Assembly (NCBI RefSeq): GCF_000018105.1
Contig: NC_009925.1
Span: 1,080,001 to 1,112,000, forward strand
Direction: 5' to 3'
Length of the DNA: 32,000 nt
Source: Acaryochloris marina MBIC11017
Lineage (GTDB): Bacteria > Cyanobacteriota > Cyanobacteriia > Thermosynechococcales > Thermosynechococcaceae
In this document: positions 8,286 through 28,570 of the stretch, piece after piece
Layout of the letters: each line of letters begins with the position of its first letter
Position numbering within the stretch: position 1 is the stretch's first letter
The notes under the pieces: generated by a model
Told to the model about the DNA's origin: nothing
What the model saw: only the letters and a program-made list of their open reading frames with translations
Databases searched by the model: none
Program-made: the position numbers and the translations under genes

Positions 8286-9176
8286 ATGACCACCCAAACC
8301 CTGCCAACTCGTAAACTATGGTTCGCTGCCCTAAAGCCCCCTATGTATAGTGTGGCTGTGATACCAATTTGGGTGGGATCTGCGATCGCATGGTCAGAAC
8401 AACAGCACTTAAACGCCCCCATCTTCTGGACTTTCCTCAGCGCCGCCATCCTGATTATTGCCTGGCTTAATCTCACCAATGATGTTTTTGATGCCGACAC
8501 CGGGATTGACGTGAACAAGGCTCATTCCTTGGTTAACTTAACGGGCAATCAGTCCCTGATCTTTTGGCTAGCCAACGGTTTTCTGGGATTAGGCTGTCTA
8601 GGATTAGTAGCGATCGCTTGGTGGCAGCAGGACGTCACGGTATTAGCCCTCATCCTCTTGAGTTGTTTTCTGGGCTACACCTACCAAGGCCCACCGTTCC
8701 GCTTGGGATATCAAGGTCTAGGAGAACTGATTTGTTTTGTTACCTTTGGTCCCCTTGCCGTTTCCGCAGCCTACTATAGTCAAACCCAAGCCTGGTCGAT
8801 TCGCCCCTTACCTGCCGCTATCATTATCGGCCTCACCACCAGCTTGATTCTATTCTGCTCCCATTTTCACCAAGTCGCGGATGATTTATCAGCAGGGAAA
8901 CGGTCCCCCATTGCTCGTCTCGGCACCGCCCGGGGCGCTCGATTATTGCCTTGGATTTGCGGGGGGATTTTTGGGTTGATTTTGATCTTTATGGGGTTCA
9001 ACCTATTTAGCAATGGAGTTGTGTTGAGCTGGGTCAGTCTCCCCCTCGCCATCCATCTCTGTCGACATGTGTGGCGATATCACGATCAGCCAGACCAAGT
9101 TAAAGACTGCAAATTTATCGCGGTAGGCCTACATTTTGTGAGTGGTTTGTTATTAGGAATTGGTTTGCTGGCTTAA
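8286..9176 (+). CDS. menA: 1,4-dihydroxy-2-naphthoate phytyltransferase (UbiA-family prenyltransferase)
   Basis: 296 aa, polytopic membrane protein with the NDxxDxxxD motif (NDVFDADTGID). Divergent from menF-menD. Confidence 0.85.
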   Translation: MTTQTLPTRKLWFAALKPPMYSVAVIPIWVGSAIAWSEQQHLNAPIFWTFLSAAILIIAWLNLTNDVFDADTGIDVNKAHSLVNLTGNQSLIFWLANGFLGLGCLGLVAIAWWQQDVTVLALILLSCFLGYTYQGPPFRLGYQGLGELICFVTFGPLAVSAAYYSQTQAWSIRPLPAAIIIGLTTSLILFCSHFHQVADDLSAGKRSPIARLGTARGARLLPWICGGIFGLILIFMGFNLFSNGVVLSWVSLPLAIHLCRHVWRYHDQPDQVKDCKFIAVGLHFVSGLLLGIGLLA

Positions 9177-9495
9177 TATAGTATCGTTCTACCCTTGAGG
9201 GGCTCTAACTCTCACTTGATGAGTCACCCTTAGTCATTCAGGCTGAGGAGAAGGGTACGGTTATGTCTCACCCTGCTTTAGCAAAAACCGAACCTATGAA
9301 TGCCACAAACTTGCTAGGCTAAAGTTACGCCAACCCTTTTATCTCAGGTGTTTTGACGCTTTTATCACTCAATAAATACAAAGCCTAAGCCTCACCCCCA
9401 GGCTGCGTTCTTACCTGACCAGGGAACCCATGGCTTAACACCCATCGGTTGGTCTCCAGTATTTTTTGTCTTGCTTGACCCAAGGAGTAACGCTA

Positions 9496-23380: not shown

Positions 23381-23422
23381 AAATATTGCACCTAAAATTT
23401 CGTTCATACCTACAAACAGAAG

Positions 23423-23459
23423 AAAAAAAAGACACCCCCTTCTGCCTCAAGAGAGTGTC
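23423..23459 (-). terminator. Strong Rho-independent terminator of the psbE-like/psbF-psbY-like operon
   Basis: On the minus strand: GACACTCTCTT-gaggcag-AAGGGGGTGTC (11-bp stem including G-U pairs) followed by T8. It begins 24 nt after the stop at 23483. Confidence 0.8.
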
Positions 23460-23482: not shown

Positions 23483-23782
23483 TTATTCGCGTTGTAAGAC
23501 TTCTTGGAGTTCTTGCAACGTCGGACCACCAAAGAAGATGACGTTCCAAACAACCGAGAACAAGATGGGAGCCAGCACCAAGGCTAGCCGCAGATCAATT
23601 CCAGCAATCATCGTTGGGGCAACTGCCTCATAGGCATCCATTCGGTTAATAAACTGCATAGATGCAATTGCGCCGAGGAACCACACCAAAGGGACACCCA
23701 ATGTGTGGACCGCCAACCAGCGCACGGTATAGATAGGATATTTCCTTTGGGGAGGTCGCTGGAGCTGAGTTCTTGCCGTCAT
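23483..23782 (-). CDS. psbF: Cytochrome b559 beta (PsbF)-like protein fused in frame to a PsbY-like transmembrane helix
   Basis: Residues 1-46 (..[33 protein letters not shown]) match full-length PsbF, including the heme-ligand His. There is no stop at that point. A 14-aa linker follows, then [38 protein letters not shown], which matches PsbY as I remember it. AGGAG lies 9 nt upstream of the ATG. Confidence 0.75.
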
Positions 23783-23794
23783 ATCGAATGCCTC

Positions 23795-24067
23795 CTAATT
23801 GTTGGTATCAAGACTTGGACTAAGATTGCGAAAATCATCGATTTGCTGTTTACCGGCATACCGATCCGTCACAATTTGTATTTGAGACTCAGATTGAGAA
23901 TAATATTCATTTGGATGGGGCGTTCCAAAAACATCGTATGCTAGCCCAGAACTGACAAAGAGCCATCCTGATATAAAAATAGCTGGAATATTAATAACGT
24001 GGAGCTTCCAGAAAGAGAAATCGGTGATAATCTCACCAAACGGGCGCTCACCTGTTACACCGGCCAT
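23795..24067 (-). CDS. psbE: Cytochrome b559 alpha (PsbE)-like protein, divergent
   Basis: [48 protein letters not shown] is collinear with PsbE, with the heme His retained. I prefer the ATG at 24067 (6 nt after AGGAG) over 24073. Confidence 0.85.
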
Positions 24068-24089
24068 AAGCATCTCCTAACTTAGTTGA

Positions 24090-24149
24090 GAATAATTCTT
24101 ATTCACAGACTTATTATTGCAATTAATTATCAATAATTCAAGAGATAAT
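24090..24149 (-). promoter_or_regulatory. Predicted promoter of the psbE-like operon, overlapped by Fur-box-like palindromes and hexamers
   Basis: Minus strand: TTGAAT (24141-24136), 17-nt spacer, AATAAT (24118-24113). Palindrome AATTAT-CA-ATAATT at 24125-24138. Palindrome GAATAA-TTC-TTATTC at 24090-24104. GATAAT at 24144-24149. Confidence 0.45.
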
Positions 24150-24492
24150 TTCTGTTCTCATTTAGAGATTTGATAAGTAAAAGCTATAGCGGCAGAAATT
24201 CAGCCCTTGGAAGCGAGGAGCCAATCATCATCACCAGCCCATTTTTTGCCCTTTCATGAGCAATGATTTTTATTTTTATTGAGAATTGTTGTAAATTTGG
24301 AGACAGACTGAACGCCCTAAACCTCAGACCAGTGTGTTGTCCTTTATCTACTGTTAAGCCTGGATACAGCTCTTTCACTTGTAATGATTTTGTGGAAACA
24401 ATATCACAACCTCAGCTATAACTATCCGCTGCCCTTATATACAGGAATCTATCCCCTCAGGCCCATAGGAAAATATCTTGTCAGGACGGTAC

Positions 24493-24936
24493 ATGTATAC
24501 TTCTAGCTCACTCAAAGCCGAATTAAATGAGAAAGGTTGGCGACTGACTCCTCAGCGGGAAATAATATTGACGGCCTTCCAAGAATTGGAGAAAGGGCAA
24601 CATCTCAGCGCTGAAGATCTCTACGAGCTGTTAATGCAACAAGGTAATCCCATCAGCCTTTCCACCATTTATAGAAACACTAAGCTTATGTCCCATATGG
24701 GAATACTCCGAGAGCTGGAATTCGCTGAAGGGCATAAGCACTATGAGCTAAATCAACCCTACCCGAATCATCACCATCACCTGATATGCGTCAAATGTAA
24801 TCAGACGATTGAGTTTAAAAGCGATTCCATCCTCAAAGTGGGGAAAAGTAAAGCGAAGCAATCTGGATTTCATCTCTTAGACTGTCAATTGACGATCCAT
24901 GCCATTTGCCCAACTTGCAAAATTGCAAAGGGGTAG
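24493..24936 (+). CDS. fur: Ferric uptake regulator (FurA type)
   Basis: 147 aa. SLKAELNEKGWRLTPQRE..HLSAEDLY..ISLSTIYRN..GHKHYEL..HHHHLICVKCNQTIEF..LLDCQLTIHAICPTC is near-collinear with cyanobacterial FurA. The ATG at 24493 (AGGA 6 nt upstream) is preferred over the TTG at 24478. Confidence 0.9.
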   Translation: MYTSSSLKAELNEKGWRLTPQREIILTAFQELEKGQHLSAEDLYELLMQQGNPISLSTIYRNTKLMSHMGILRELEFAEGHKHYELNQPYPNHHHHLICVKCNQTIEFKSDSILKVGKSKAKQSGFHLLDCQLTIHAICPTCKIAKG

Positions 24937-24963: not shown

Positions 24964-25335
24964 TTATTTAATTTCTAAGGCTTCTGAACCGCCTTCCTCT
25001 AAAGTTCTTAGAAGTATTCCCAGCTGATACCACACCAATAGCCCACTGGATAGCACCACAAAAGTAGACATGGTAAATCCAACAGCCCAGGTAACAGCAA
25101 AAGTCGTTAAGGATGAACCCACAAAAATCCAACTACAAATACAAATCCCTAGGTAAGGTACAAATAACCTGGGTTCATTAACATTCCTGAGTGGCTTTTC
25201 AGATAACCCCTCCGACCATTCTTTTGTTTTGCGTTTGATTGACACTTCAAACGCTTTGCCACAAGCAAATCCGCAGAGGGCAGCAATGCCAATCAAAAAG
25301 TATGGCGGATCAGGAATTTCAAAAAGAAAGTGCAT
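24964..25335 (-). CDS. Hypothetical membrane protein (about 3 TM helices)
   Basis: 123-aa ORF with three hydrophobic segments. Converges on fur with a 27-nt gap. No family recognised. Confidence 0.5.
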   Translation of the reverse strand: MHFLFEIPDPPYFLIGIAALCGFACGKAFEVSIKRKTKEWSEGLSEKPLRNVNEPRLFVPYLGICICSWIFVGSSLTTFAVTWAVGFTMSTFVVLSSGLLVWYQLGILLRTLEEGGSEALEIK

Positions 25336-25650: not shown

Positions 25651-26265
25651 TTAAGCAATTTCTCTGTCGAACTTAATTTTTATATTTTTCTGGATAAATC
25701 TAGGGGGCTTGTTGCCGATATAGTCGAATTCAGCCAACTTATACTGACTAAACTGCACATCCAGCTCACTATAAGCAATTTTGGGATCCCTCTTGGAAAT
25801 TGAGCTAGCTAGCCCACCTTCTTCGCCAACACAGGACTTGAAGTCGACCAAATACAAGTTGCCGCCACTGTCAAAGCTAAAGAAAGGACCATCCTGGCCG
25901 CCAATTGAATAATTTCCGTCTTGACCATTATCCAAATCATAAATATTCCGATTACAGATGGTCTCTTCTGTATGCTTTACCCCCGTATGGGGAGAAATAT
26001 ATTCAAAAGAAAATCTTGCATCCTTACCCAAATCATTGATGGTTAAGCTGCCCATTAACCCTTCCAAATCTTTGCCACTATTTAAGGCATTGACCACAGT
26101 ATCTTTGTCATAGGAAACCTTGCCAGAGATCACTCCCTCATCTCCAATATTGCCAGCACTCTTGAAGGAGTAGGTGGTAGCCCATGCGGAATTAGTCATT
26201 ATCAACAAACCTAAGCACACACATACAGCGCTGATCAGCAAACGCTTGAGACTATTGCGAATCAT
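25651..26265 (-). CDS. Hypothetical secreted protein
   Basis: 204 aa. N-terminal signal peptide (..LLIMTNSAWA/TT), Gly/Asp-rich mature part with two Cys. No family recognised. Confidence 0.55.
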   Translation of the reverse strand: MIRNSLKRLLISAVCVCLGLLIMTNSAWATTYSFKSAGNIGDEGVISGKVSYDKDTVVNALNSGKDLEGLMGSLTINDLGKDARFSFEYISPHTGVKHTEETICNRNIYDLDNGQDGNYSIGGQDGPFFSFDSGGNLYLVDFKSCVGEEGGLASSISKRDPKIAYSELDVQFSQYKLAEFDYIGNKPPRFIQKNIKIKFDREIA

Positions 26266-26464
26266 CGGTGATAATCCTCTGTACGATTTTTATTGAAATT
26301 CTCTCTCAATAATTACACAAGCTTGCCAACAGATCAAAATCGCATCTATCGATAAAAAGTTCAAAATTCATTGTGAATAGTTAGTTTTACTGCATAAATC
26401 TGCTGCCAAGCTATCTATCAGCTCTAACATTATTGAGTTTTATTACAGCTGTACATCTAGATTA

Positions 26465-26507
26465 TTGACACTTAATTTCAATAAAACTATTCTGACAATC
26501 ATTGATC
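26465..26507 (+). promoter_or_regulatory. Predicted sigma70-type promoter followed directly by a Fur-half-site-like sequence, upstream of the TPR / chlorophyll-binding-protein genes
   Basis: TTGACA (26465-70), 17-nt spacer, TATTCT (26488-93), then GACAATCATTGATC (26494-26507; 9/10 match to GATAATCATT of the classical Fur box; core palindrome CAAT-C-ATTG). Confidence 0.35.
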
Positions 26508-26711
26508 GCTCTAAAAAATGTTCTCCTCTCAGAGACATGGCAAGGGGAGCTGTAAGTACTCAGTTCCCTATTTTTTTTCAGGGCTAGGCCGTGGTTATTG
26601 CACGCCGCCCCAGCATCAGACTATTGCTGCAAAACTGAATCCTACCCTTGACTGACTAGATCGAGAATCTAGCAAAGTCTGCAGGGTTCAGTGCCCATGA
26701 AAGGTGGAGAT

Positions 26712-27398
26712 ATGAAATGCATTGCTCTCAGATTAATCACCCTTTTTCTAGCAGGGTCTATTTTCTTGAATGGTTCATCGGCAGCGATGGCGCTTTCCAG
26801 TGCCGATGGTCACTCATCTCATCCCCAAGGTGAGCCATCTTCGACCTTTGACAAAGCAGAATTTCTGTATTGGTTCAAGCAATGCGAACATCTTCAAGGC
26901 CAAGAGGCCCTGGCAGCTTGTGAGCAAGCCTTGAAGATCAATCCCCATGTGGCCGCAGCTTGGATCAACCATGGCCAAAAGCTATTCAATTTTCGTCAAT
27001 ATACGAAAGCTTTGATTTCTTTTGAAAATGCCTTGTTGCTGAAGCCCGATTACTCCCTGGGTTTGGCCAACCGATGCGGTATTCTCACTGTCTTAGGTCG
27101 ATATCCCGAAGCCTTAGATTCCTGTGACATGGCCTTAATTGGTGATCAGCAATGGGGATTTAGTGGACAGGTTCTCGCCTGGAATAATCGGGGCGATACC
27201 TTGATCAAGCTGGAACGGTATGAAGAAGCATTAGCCTCTTTCCAAAAATCTTTAGCGATCGACCCCAACGATGTTGCGGCCCAGCAATATCGTCATGTTG
27301 TCCTGAAAAAACTAAACCGTCGCGATCACTCGCAACCACAAGCGCCTGGTTTTATCCCTTCACAACAAGAGTCACAAATCGCTCTTGTCCCGTACTGA
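26712..27398 (+). CDS. Secreted/lumenal TPR-repeat protein
   Basis: Signal peptide MKCIALRLITLFLAGSIFLNGSSAAMA. At least 4 TPR units (e.g. AAAWINHGQKLFNFRQYTKALISFENALLLKPDY; AWNNRGDTLIKLERYEEALASFQKSLAIDPND). The ATG at 26712 (GGAG upstream) is preferred over the GTG at 26691. Confidence 0.8.
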   Translation: MKCIALRLITLFLAGSIFLNGSSAAMALSSADGHSSHPQGEPSSTFDKAEFLYWFKQCEHLQGQEALAACEQALKINPHVAAAWINHGQKLFNFRQYTKALISFENALLLKPDYSLGLANRCGILTVLGRYPEALDSCDMALIGDQQWGFSGQVLAWNNRGDTLIKLERYEEALASFQKSLAIDPNDVAAQQYRHVVLKKLNRRDHSQPQAPGFIPSQQESQIALVPY

Positions 27399-27466: not shown

Positions 27467-28570
27467 ATGGAATCCTCGATTGAAAACCAAAACTATCCCT
27501 GGTATGCAGGGAATAGCCGCTTAATTGAACCCTCTGTTTCAGGGAGATGGTTAGCTGCCCATATTCTCCAAGCGGCCATTATTATGTTCTGGGTGGGGCT
27601 CAATACCCTATCGGAGTTACAGGTCTTTGACCCCGATGTTGCTATGTATGAGCAGGGATTAGTGCTGATCCCTCATATGGCAGCTGAAGGGATAGGCGTC
27701 GGTCCAGGGGGAGTAGTTATGGATACATTCCCCTACTTTGCCATTGCCTTTGTACATTGGGTCGCGAGTTTAGTTCTCCTGTTTGGCGGTTATTATCATC
27801 TCGCCGTGGGGCCGTCTGATCTTTCCAAGGGAGGCCGAGGAAATACGAAACGGTTTGCCTTTGACTGGGATGATCCGAAACAGTTGGGATATATCTTAGG
27901 TAACCACCTCCTCTTTATTGGATTTGCCTCAATCCTATTTGCAGGCTGGATTATCAGTCATGGTATCTATGACCCCACCATTGGGGAGGTTCATGCAGTC
28001 ACCCCCACTGCTGAGAACTTTACCCATATCTATCAATATGGTTGGTCAACGCCTGGATTTAATCCGTTTTTTATCGATAATTTAGGGGATTTAGCCGCAG
28101 GTCATATTTTAATTGGCCTCTTCGACATGCTCGGCGGAATTTGGCACATTAATGTCGCCCCCTTCAGTTGGGAACAGCAGCTAGGCGCTCGAAGAGATAA
28201 CTATAGTGCCGATGGGCTGATTGGCTTATCCCTGGGAGGCGTTGCCATCATGGGATTCATTTCCGCCTATTTTTGTGCAGTCAATACCTTTGTCTATCCG
28301 GTTGAGTTTTACGGTGCTGCGTTGGAAGTGAAATTTAACGTTGCCCCTTACTTCAAGGACTCAGTTGAGCTAGGAGATGGTGTGTTTAGCTCCCGAGCTT
28401 GGCTATCCAATGTGACTTACTATGTCGGCTTCTACTGCTTGCAAGGCCATCTTTTCCATAGCCTCAGAGCCATGGGCGTCAAGTTTGAAAATCTTCCTCA
28501 AGCCCTTGGTGCAGCTTTCAAAATTGAATCTTCCCAACCCACAGAAGCCGCGCAGCCCACTGGCGAATAG
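27467..28570 (+). CDS. Chlorophyll-binding antenna protein of the IsiA/Pcb (CP43-like, six-helix) family, divergent member
   Basis: 367 aa. WYAGNSRL..SGRWLAAH, FVHWVASLVLLFGGYYH, GNHLLF, AAGHILIGLFDMLGGIWHI, NTFVYPVEFYG, SRAWLSNV..CLQGHLFHSLRAMG are collinear with IsiA/Pcb. Confidence 0.88.
   Translation: MESSIENQNYPWYAGNSRLIEPSVSGRWLAAHILQAAIIMFWVGLNTLSELQVFDPDVAMYEQGLVLIPHMAAEGIGVGPGGVVMDTFPYFAIAFVHWVASLVLLFGGYYHLAVGPSDLSKGGRGNTKRFAFDWDDPKQLGYILGNHLLFIGFASILFAGWIISHGIYDPTIGEVHAVTPTAENFTHIYQYGWSTPGFNPFFIDNLGDLAAGHILIGLFDMLGGIWHINVAPFSWEQQLGARRDNYSADGLIGLSLGGVAIMGFISAYFCAVNTFVYPVEFYGAALEVKFNVAPYFKDSVELGDGVFSSRAWLSNVTYYVGFYCLQGHLFHSLRAMGVKFENLPQALGAAFKIESSQPTEAAQPTGE

Follow-up and report, generated by a model that had tools for sequence, protein, structure and literature searches.

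Investigation of a 32,000-nucleotide stretch of the Acaryochloris marina MBIC11017 genome (contig NC_009925.1, positions 1,080,001 to 1,112,000 of the forward strand; hereafter the window) revealed a two-gene operon encoding a divergent paralogue of the cytochrome b559 alpha subunit PsbE (AM1_1130) and a 99-aa protein (AM1_1129) in which the beta subunit PsbF is joined in frame to a PsbY-like domain. The PsbF-PsbY fusion is genuine and conserved across scattered cyanobacterial lineages, its PsbY part is under purifying selection, and both genes are paralogues of the canonical cytochrome b559 genes. The operon lies behind a conserved Fur-type palindrome and may encode a form of cytochrome b559 used under iron limitation.

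The in-frame fusion of PsbF and PsbY

Regarding gene structure, the longest PsbE-like open reading frame (ORF) extends from 23795 to 24073 on the minus strand (92 aa), but the variant psbE almost certainly begins at the second ATG, at 24067, and then encodes 90 aa, since an AGGAG sequence lies 6 nt from this codon (and abuts the ATG at 24073) and all homologues begin with MAG or MSG. The fusion gene begins 12 nt past the variant psbE stop codon and is preceded by AGGAGG. The strong terminator described in an earlier note on this DNA, which had been made from the sequence without database searches, was found as an 11-bp stem (23459-23431, minus strand) followed by T8, 23 nt beyond the fusion stop codon. 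The 99-aa protein is identical (99/99) to ABW26168.1, to UniRef100_B0C2V2 and to chain F of PDB entry 7YMI. The names of AM1_1129 in these databases conflict, 'cytochrome b559, beta subunit, putative' in GenBank and 'Photosystem II (reaction center) protein Y' in UniRef and PDB; each name reflects one half of the protein. Homologues of psbL and psbJ were detected neither in the window nor at any fusion locus, as the earlier note had stated for this operon, while 70 canonical loci have both.

The earlier note had read the operon as a full-length but divergent PsbE with its heme-ligand His, followed by a complete PsbF that keeps its heme His, ends in MQFINR and continues through a 14-aa linker into 38 PsbY-like residues. 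All sequence strings that it quoted are present, and the hidden Markov model searches that it had proposed for both ORFs placed the alpha and beta subunits above the curated cut-offs. The 90-aa variant PsbE, in which the heme ligand lies in the motif FWKLH, scored 115.4 bits against TIGR01332 (cyt_b559_alpha; cut-off 93.95) and 66.1 bits against PF00284 (cut-off 25), and residues 14-47 of the fusion scored 65.1 bits against TIGR01333 (cyt_b559_beta; cut-off 61.15). Residues 62-99 align end to end with PsbY (NF009711 positions 1-38 of 40, with E=1e-5 for the protein and 3.8e-6 when its last 52 aa are searched by themselves) and also match PF06298 (E=1e-3 for the whole protein, 3e-4 for the C-terminal piece alone). 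Since these PsbY matches of the window protein, although significant, fall below the Pfam and NCBIfam cut-offs, the family was tested instead of the single sequence. All family C-terminal domains (31/31) matched PF06298 at E<=0.01, with a best value of 1.2e-8, and a profile of these domains finds solved PsbY chains, namely 9t5u_R (E=1.2e-5), 7n8o_R of Synechocystis (E=3.3e-5) and another at 6e-4. Similarly, tblastn with Synechocystis PsbY as the query matched positions 23599-23486 (E=1.8e-5), and PF06298 is a precomputed assignment on 13 homologous clusters, which carry both Pfam domains. None of the 31 C-terminal domains matched PsbL or PsbJ, the partners to be expected from the mere loss of a stop codon within psbEFLJ. 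The homology to PsbY is thus full-length and holds at the level of the family, as the alignment in the earlier note had suggested.

The PsbF part ends in MQFINR at the very point where canonical PsbF, a single-helix protein of ~39-46 aa ending in QFIQR, terminates, and the fusion continues for 52 more residues. Its C-terminal domain shares with PsbY (Sml0007/Ycf32) the pattern D-x-R...V..P......W in addition to the full-length profile match, and the lumenal N-terminus expected of PsbY fits a tail-to-head fusion with PsbF. Unlike PsbY, the domain is no free peptide of ~40 aa, and its second half has a conserved motif of its own, FG(K/G)PT.QE, which is not found in canonical PsbY.

Regarding conservation, a protein search with the fusion yielded ~40 clusters of 95-107 aa with full coverage of the query, which come from independent assemblies and lineages. 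Their sources are Acaryochloris species, Acaryochloridaceae, Okeania, Trichodesmium, Leptolyngbyaceae, 'Cyanobacteria bacterium CRU_2_1' and marine metagenome-assembled genomes (MAGs), many of the clusters being metagenomic. The full-length gene was detected in at least ten species genomes (Acaryochloris sp. IP29b, a Trichodesmium MAG, a Leptolyngbyaceae MAG and seven marine cyanobacterial MAGs); the scan covered one genome per GTDB species, and the species count is a lower bound. In an alignment of 40 homologues, Y15-T19, His26 (40/40), G29, P31, W34-F35, G37-I39, M42-F44, V69, P72, W79 and E91 are invariant, and G61, D63 and R65 are each present in 90% or more. The linker is acidic, varies in sequence, has a length of 11-15 residues across the family and is the least constrained segment. 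Among Acaryochloris orthologues, the ratio of non-synonymous to synonymous substitution rates (dN/dS) is 0.09 in the PsbF part, 0.06 in the PsbY part (9 synonymous vs 2 non-synonymous changes) and 0.4-0.7 in the linker; over the whole fusion gene it is 0.04-0.12.

At least two shortened fusion genes are present among the species-genome matches listed. In Leptolyngbya sp. Heron Island J (locus L038, 10001-10249) the fusion ORF ends within the PsbY helix (82 aa, ...LVLLPLALGASEGSGNR) and represents either a decaying copy or an assembly error.

Paralogy with canonical cytochrome b559

The look for a canonical psbEFLJ operon that the earlier note had recommended revealed, in near-identical Acaryochloris contigs, the gene order rubA-ycf48-psbE-psbF-psbL-psbJ with a psbF of 44 aa, and the PsbE encoded there is identical to chain E of 7YMI over 80 aligned residues. 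In one Leptolyngbyaceae MAG, the fusion (L013) and a canonical psbF (L040) are located on separate contigs. For MBIC11017, the RNA sequencing transcriptome paper of 2016 lists AM1_2630 (psbE), AM1_2629 (psbJ) and AM1_6425 (psbL) beside AM1_1130 and AM1_1129, so that the presence of both gene sets settles the question of paralogy raised by the earlier note. The read counts given there are 34,459/11,070/17,313 for AM1_2630, 47/21/33 for AM1_1130 and 20/20/20 for AM1_1129, showing the variant operon to be near-silent in iron-replete cultures.

Identity to the canonical Acaryochloris copies amounts to 49/83 for the alpha subunit and 31/44 for the PsbF part. Comparison of 21 variant with 138 canonical PsbE sequences gave the variant signature ITD-x-x-FW-x-LH-x-x-N-x-PA-x-F-x-SG in place of the canonical ITS-x-RYWVIHS-x-TIP-x-LFIAG, with the heme-ligand His (His23 in canonical numbering) retained in the variant consensus. 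Fixed differences surround this residue, comprising S16D, loss of Arg18 (S, E, Q or K instead), Y19F, T26N and A33S, while Arg8 is kept; the variant C-terminus is 7-17 residues longer than the canonical one. Mutant studies are said to show that alpha Arg18 specifically tunes the b559 potential. Over a 22-residue stretch of the alpha subunit the two consensus sequences do not differ, and 23/31 lumenal positions are common to both. The PsbF part has YPIY for YPIF and VWF for VFF, and differs from canonical Acaryochloris PsbF at ~7/33 helix positions. Differences between the two paralogues include Tyr18 vs Phe, Leu32-Val33-Trp34 vs Ile-Thr-Phe, Ser41 vs Ala and Asn46 vs Gln, and the peptide YPIYTVR of the fusion corresponds to YPVFTVR.

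Both forms of cytochrome b559 thus have subunits above the NCBIfam equivalog cut-offs, both heme-ligand His residues, psbF directly after psbE, and a closely similar alpha lumenal domain and beta helix. The variant differs from the psbEFLJ-encoded form in being a two-gene operon without psbL and psbJ and with no rubA-ycf48 ahead of it, in an alpha subunit without Arg18 and Tyr19 and with a longer C-terminus, in a beta subunit with a second transmembrane helix, and in being near-silent in standard culture and placed behind a Fur-type palindrome.

As a described precedent, PsbF2 of Synechococcus sp. PCC 7335 and of the far-red light photoacclimation (FaRLiP) clusters was considered and rejected as an unfused duplicate. 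It is likewise a second psbF copy outside psbEFLJ, but is a plain PsbF with 75% identity to PsbF1, located beside psbO1, nblA and psbV, with no paired psbE and no PsbY domain. The b559 beta 'long form' of NCBIfam (NF002717/NF002720) is also a PsbF of ~97 aa, but its extension is N-terminal (PsbF core at 55-92) whereas that of the fusion is C-terminal, and the fusion scored 54.2 and 47.7 bits against these models, under cut-offs of 153 and 127. The earlier note was not aware of any described PsbF-PsbY fusion. This holds for the literature searched, in which neither the fusion nor its conservation, linked genes or operator was found described, but not for the databases, which carry both domain calls. 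Since the genes have annotations and standard models detect both domains, the fusion is no new kind of protein; what is new here is the conserved neighbourhood and the conserved, putative Fur-type operator of the variant operon.

A putative Fur-type operator and the gene neighbourhood

Regarding regulation, the earlier note had suggested conditional use of the operon from the adjacent fur gene and Fur-like boxes. The box proved to be a conserved 23-bp palindrome at the promoter of an operon near-silent under iron-replete conditions; this strengthens conditional use through Fur but does not prove it, and on sequence grounds Fur control is the leading hypothesis, which would explain the silence of the operon in iron-replete cultures. 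The operator overlaps the spacer and the -10 of the promoter-like site upstream of variant psbE, its upstream end on the gene strand lying 66 nt from the variant psbE ATG. At one mismatch or fewer, TTATTGA-N9-TCAATAA occurs at three sites in the window vs 0.00 expected in shuffles, and all three fall in the two promoter regions of the module described below (Table 1).

The pattern TTATTGA(C/T)AAT-N5-TCA(A/T)T was found upstream of variant psbE in nearly every locus. A weight matrix from 11 sites detected a site upstream of variant psbE in L004, L007, L008 and L010-L016, with untrained matches upstream of the operon in L011 (Trichodesmium MAG, 30 bits) and L018 (34 bits); on ~1.1 Mb of canonical psbEFLJ loci it gave only four weak matches. 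The palindrome recurs upstream of variant psbE in lineages without an adjacent fur gene. In L013 a weak 14.7-bit match is located at 9215, on the antenna-gene side of the intergenic region. In L014 (8518-8540) and L016 (11586-11608), a gene for class I fructose-bisphosphate aldolase next to the cluster has the same palindrome in its divergent promoter; in Trichodesmium, class I aldolase replaces class II under iron stress.

The best window matches to the Anabaena FurA consensus AAATAAATTCTCAATAAAT are two sites at 15/19, both in the spacer between fur and variant psbE (one at 24120-24138), and the next tier consists of four sites at 14/19, including one in each of the two palindromes of the spacer between AM1_1133 and the TPR gene. 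The Synechocystis Fur box is, according to the literature, palindromic and AT-rich, has 21-23 nt and a central base, and is typical of bidirectional promoters. The putative operator likewise has 23 bp, is AT-rich and symmetric about a central base, and stands in bidirectional promoters. Its core TCAATAA also occurs in the Anabaena FurA consensus, and its neighbours, which include fur as well as genes of the ferritin-like, IsiA-like, heme oxygenase and class I aldolase types, recall the cyanobacterial Fur regulon (isiA, iron uptake genes and others). A point of difference is that the literature searched showed no paralogue of a photosystem II (PSII) core subunit as a Fur target. In a far-red/low-light study of strain MU13, a 'PsbY' gene was up ~4-fold in low far-red light; this gene cannot be tied to the fusion, and far-red light was not adopted as the inducer.

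Table 1. Features of the variant cytochrome b559 operon and its surroundings. Positions are those of the window unless a related locus (L number) is named.
Feature	Position	Strand	Remarks
Variant psbE (AM1_1130, ABW26169.1)	23795..24067	-	90 aa, cytochrome b559 alpha paralogue; start at ATG 24067 almost certain
psbF::psbY fusion gene (AM1_1129, ABW26168.1 = B0C2V2 = 7YMI_F)	23483..23782	-	99 aa, 11.27 kDa
PsbF domain, residues 1-47	23642..23782	-	TIGR01333 and alignment
Linker, residues 48-61 (14 residues)	23600..23641	-	alignment, AlphaFold2 loop, dN/dS, charge
PsbY-like domain, residues 62-99	23486..23599	-	profiles, tblastn, dN/dS
Intrinsic terminator of the two-gene operon	23421..23459	-	11-bp stem, then T-run
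Putative Fur-type operator (TTATTGCAATTAATTATCAATAA)	24114..24136	.	23-bp palindrome, one mismatch to TTATTGA-N9-TCAATAA
Promoter-like element TTGAAT-17 nt-(TG)AATAAT	24113..24141	-	upstream of variant psbE, consensus match only
Second FurA-like site (ACAACAATTCTCAATAAAA)	24274..24292	-	15/19 to Anabaena consensus, fur-proximal side of intergenic region
Perfect TTATTGA-N9-TCAATAA palindrome	26290..26312	.	divergent AM1_1133/AM1_1134 promoter region
Second perfect palindrome	26462..26484	.	AM1_1133/AM1_1134 intergenic region; 28.4 bits, outside training set
Fur-family regulator (AM1_1131 by position)	24478..24936	+	divergent from b559 operon
Membrane protein (AM1_1132 by position)	24964..25335	-	123 aa, no family match; Acaryochloris loci only
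AM1_1133	25651..26265	-	204 aa, signal peptide, beta-rich mature domain, invariant SCVG motif
TPR protein (AM1_1134 by position)	26691..27398	+	235 aa, signal peptide, TPR_1 83 bits
Pcb/IsiA-type six-helix chlorophyll antenna	27467..28570	+	367 aa, TIGR03041 358.9 bits (cut-off 335)
Small PsbY-like ORF	L013 12615-12746; L012 7227-7340; L010 4592-4717; L004 12042-12170; L008 5131-5259; L011 3427-3549; L014 7701-7844		

The ORFs of the window and of 17 related loci were compared, 15 loci carrying the variant operon. Genes of the AM1_1133 family (~200 aa) and TPR genes (~235 aa) are both linked to it in the same 11 of the 15 loci, which span several cyanobacterial orders. The AM1_1133 family is very small (~5 representative clusters in a set of 1.84e9 proteins), and AM1_1133 was modelled by AlphaFold2 with a mean predicted local distance difference test (pLDDT) score of 74.7 and a predicted template modelling (pTM) score of 0.70; a likeness to hemophores or nitrobindins was discarded, the scattered Foldseek hits being noise. 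A heme oxygenase gene (280 bits) is located between the fusion and the AM1_1133 homologue in L010 (2150-2875), L012 (5151-5867) and L013 (10411-11130). A Pcb/IsiA-type gene adjoins the variant operon in two lineages, Acaryochloris and Leptolyngbyaceae (L013). To judge from accession order, the antenna of the window is probably ABW26174.1 (B0C2V8), the 'PcbA1' of Shen et al.; PcbA1 was not seen in the solved PSII-Pcb megacomplex and may belong to the same conditionally expressed set.

Regarding iron-themed neighbours, fur adjoins the operon in Acaryochloris, and a ferritin-like gene is present beside fur in L007. The AM1_1131 protein scored 110 and 82 bits against Fur models, below the equivalog cut-offs, and has orthologues in L001 and L007. 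Its ORF as called begins at a TTG (24478), while the L007 orthologue begins MYTTSSLKAE; the true start is likely the ATG at 24493 (MYTSSSLKAELNEKGWRLTPQRE...). The gene in L007 (Acaryochloris sp. IP29b_bin.148, 8323-8757, minus strand) encodes 144 aa, lies between fur and a gene for a 149-aa membrane protein, and by eye looks ferritin/Dps-like.

Outside Acaryochloris, a small uncalled ORF of 37-47 aa (example MFNLSNLIDLRLLLVLSPITTAIAWAM...) was observed, the N-terminal half of which is PsbY-like (DLRLLLVLSPITTAIAW). It matches Pfam PsbY over the first 20 positions with up to 28.7 bits, 2/5 being above the gathering cut-off, and is located 3' of the TPR gene or, in L014, directly 3' of the fusion; it was absent from the Acaryochloris loci. 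In a metagenomic protein of 112 aa (P0216), the beginning of a variant PsbE (~30 residues, SGTTGERPLRDIITDIEFWKLHFINIPAI) runs into the last 80 residues of an AM1_1133 homologue. This protein is probably a deletion or a chimeric assembly, but it shows the variant psbE and AM1_1133 genes next to each other in another organism.

Possible roles and alternative readings

There is about an even chance that the operon encodes a Fur-repressed, iron-limitation form of cytochrome b559 with tethered PsbY. In such a form, the variant alpha subunit and the PsbF part would each give one His to a single heme, as in canonical b559, and the beta chain would recross the membrane as the PsbY helix, so that PsbY, normally loose beside b559, would be held at a fixed 1:1 ratio and could not be lost. 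The AlphaFold2 model, built with the 40-sequence alignment and of moderate confidence (pLDDT 69), has helices at 17-45 and 64-98 and a loop at 46-63 between them, the hydropathy profile has two membrane segments, and the charge is +4 in the N-terminal tail and -2 in the loop. The predicted topology, with the N-terminus in the cytoplasm, the linker loop in the lumen and the C-terminus in the cytoplasm, is the orientation expected of PsbF followed by PsbY and agrees with the earlier note in that a tail-to-head fusion appears topologically allowed. PsbY adjoins PsbE and PsbF, Arabidopsis without PsbY has only low-potential b559, and arginines contacting the heme propionates help to set the b559 redox form. 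With PsbY tethered and with Arg18 and Tyr19 gone from the cytoplasmic face of the heme, the redox form or the stability of the heme should change; the near-canonical lumenal domain and helices suggest that the variant still docks in PSII. The operon would be part of a small conserved module with AM1_1133 and the TPR protein, both predicted to be secreted or lumenal, to which some lineages may add a heme oxygenase, a Pcb/IsiA-type antenna or an extra PsbY-like peptide. As one and the same 23-bp Fur-type palindrome stands in its promoters, iron limitation is predicted to turn the module on, which would build or maintain a modified PSII; Fur binding, iron induction, PSII incorporation and the redox consequence are what we infer from these features. 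A wider reading, which is tentative and distinctly less probable, takes the variant operon as the core of a previously unrecognised Fur-controlled module that builds a distinct iron-starvation PSII with PsbY-locked b559 and new lumenal partners (AM1_1133-family and TPR proteins, and optionally heme oxygenase, the Pcb/IsiA-type antenna and the extra PsbY-like peptide) in a minority of cyanobacteria.

Several points weigh against this proposal. Nothing places the pair in PSII, neither psbL nor psbJ has a second copy, and no fold is recognised in AM1_1133, its model giving no match in a Foldseek search of the PDB (best E 0.2, query-normalised TM-scores all <0.25). A heme protein induced when iron is scarce, beside a heme oxygenase, offers no obvious economy. 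The PsbY scores of the window protein are under the curated cut-offs (PF06298 19.2-20.8 vs 24 bits; NF009711 24.8-26.3 vs 48). Regarding the operator, the upstream regions in which the weight matrix finds sites had also served to train it, and the untrained matches are its independent part; the full Anabaena FurA 19-mer has no match in the window at three mismatches or fewer, the best being 15/19; and the palindrome could serve a different regulator of the Fur family (Zur or PerR) or, in Acaryochloris, fur autoregulation. No iron-limitation expression data for organisms bearing the module were found in the literature searched, and the locus tags AM1_1129 and AM1_1130 are not in the text supplementary files of the far-red/low-light study.

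The main rival, an unlikely one, is a small heme-binding membrane complex outside PSII that re-uses the b559 fold and holds, delivers or recycles heme or iron in metal stress together with AM1_1133, the TPR protein and heme oxygenase. Such a role would agree with the lack of psbL and psbJ at every fusion locus, with partners that have signal peptides and belong to no PSII family, with the heme oxygenase gene inside the cluster in three loci, with the replacement of Arg18 and Tyr19 in the heme pocket and with the iron-themed neighbours. However, the almost unchanged alpha lumenal domain and the small number of differences in the PsbF helix are hard to explain without PSII contacts, no role of PsbY outside PSII is known from published work, and in two lineages the operon has an antenna gene of the Pcb/IsiA type linked to it.

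Rather improbable is the reading of the 99-aa product as a polyprotein that is cut in the lumenal linker to release separate PsbF and PsbY chains. Plant psbY codes for a two-unit precursor (PsbY-1/PsbY-2) that is cleaved to peptides of ~5 kDa, and so likewise encodes PsbY within a longer multi-helix polypeptide, and the weak constraint on the linker would suit a cleaved segment. In contrast to the plant precursor, where PsbY is joined to PsbY, the partner here is PsbF and there is no evident cleavage site: the linkers lack a signal-peptidase site of the Ala-x-Ala type, the AVA of Acaryochloris is followed by Pro, and in most homologues the linker ends in F/L-G ahead of the conserved Asp. The narrow range of linker length and the nearly invariant Gly61 fit a structural loop.

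Still less credible is that AM1_1129 serves as PsbF in the normal PSII of A. marina, as is implied by chain F of PDB entries 7YMI and 7YMM, the deposited sequence of which is that of AM1_1129 (99/99) under the name 'Photosystem II protein Y'. AM1_1129 was also the sole PsbF in the gene table of the 2016 transcriptome. Against this stand its floor-level 20 reads vs 34,459 for canonical psbE, and the canonical 44-aa psbF directly after the psbE that encodes the 7YMI chain E sequence in the Acaryochloris contigs; chain E is the canonical A. marina PsbE and not AM1_1130. Furthermore, the 7YMI/7YMM paper reports no PsbY density and puts this down to loss in purification, but a fused helix cannot be lost in this way, and the model was made from mutated T. 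vulcanus chains at 3.3-3.6 A resolution. The assignment of chain F was probably annotation-driven. Given that a fused PsbY could not come off, that there is hardly any AM1_1129 transcript and that the canonical psbF is present as well, the chain in the structure is most likely the canonical 44-aa PsbF, deposited with the sequence of the wrong paralogue. Kiss et al. in 2012 reportedly took AM1_1129 for the sole psbF and put forward an alpha-alpha homodimer of b559; psbE1 and psbF are said to have stayed low in expression, the far-red-induced 'psbE2' being the canonical gene. If so, any conclusion that A. marina has too little psbF transcript for its psbE likely stems from the unannotated canonical psbF.

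An artefact through sequencing error, a lost stop codon or pseudogene decay, to which the shortened Leptolyngbya homologue and the near-zero expression in culture might point, is refuted by the architecture common to ~40 clusters from independent assemblies and lineages, the family-wide invariant motifs, the low dN/dS of the whole gene and the intact ribosome-binding site, terminator and operator, and has a negligible probability.

The roles of cytochrome b559 and of PsbY are long-standing questions of PSII research, for which the variant cytochrome b559 with its fused PsbY represents a natural experiment that allows probing how PsbY occupancy and the surroundings of Arg18 and Tyr19 set the heme redox form. 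The conserved, putative Fur-type operator points to iron depletion as a candidate inducing condition for an operon that otherwise looks silent, and the module flags two uncharacterised secreted proteins and the small PsbY-like ORF as possible PSII-associated factors. The variant operon and its module are thus of interest to research on both PSII and iron stress.

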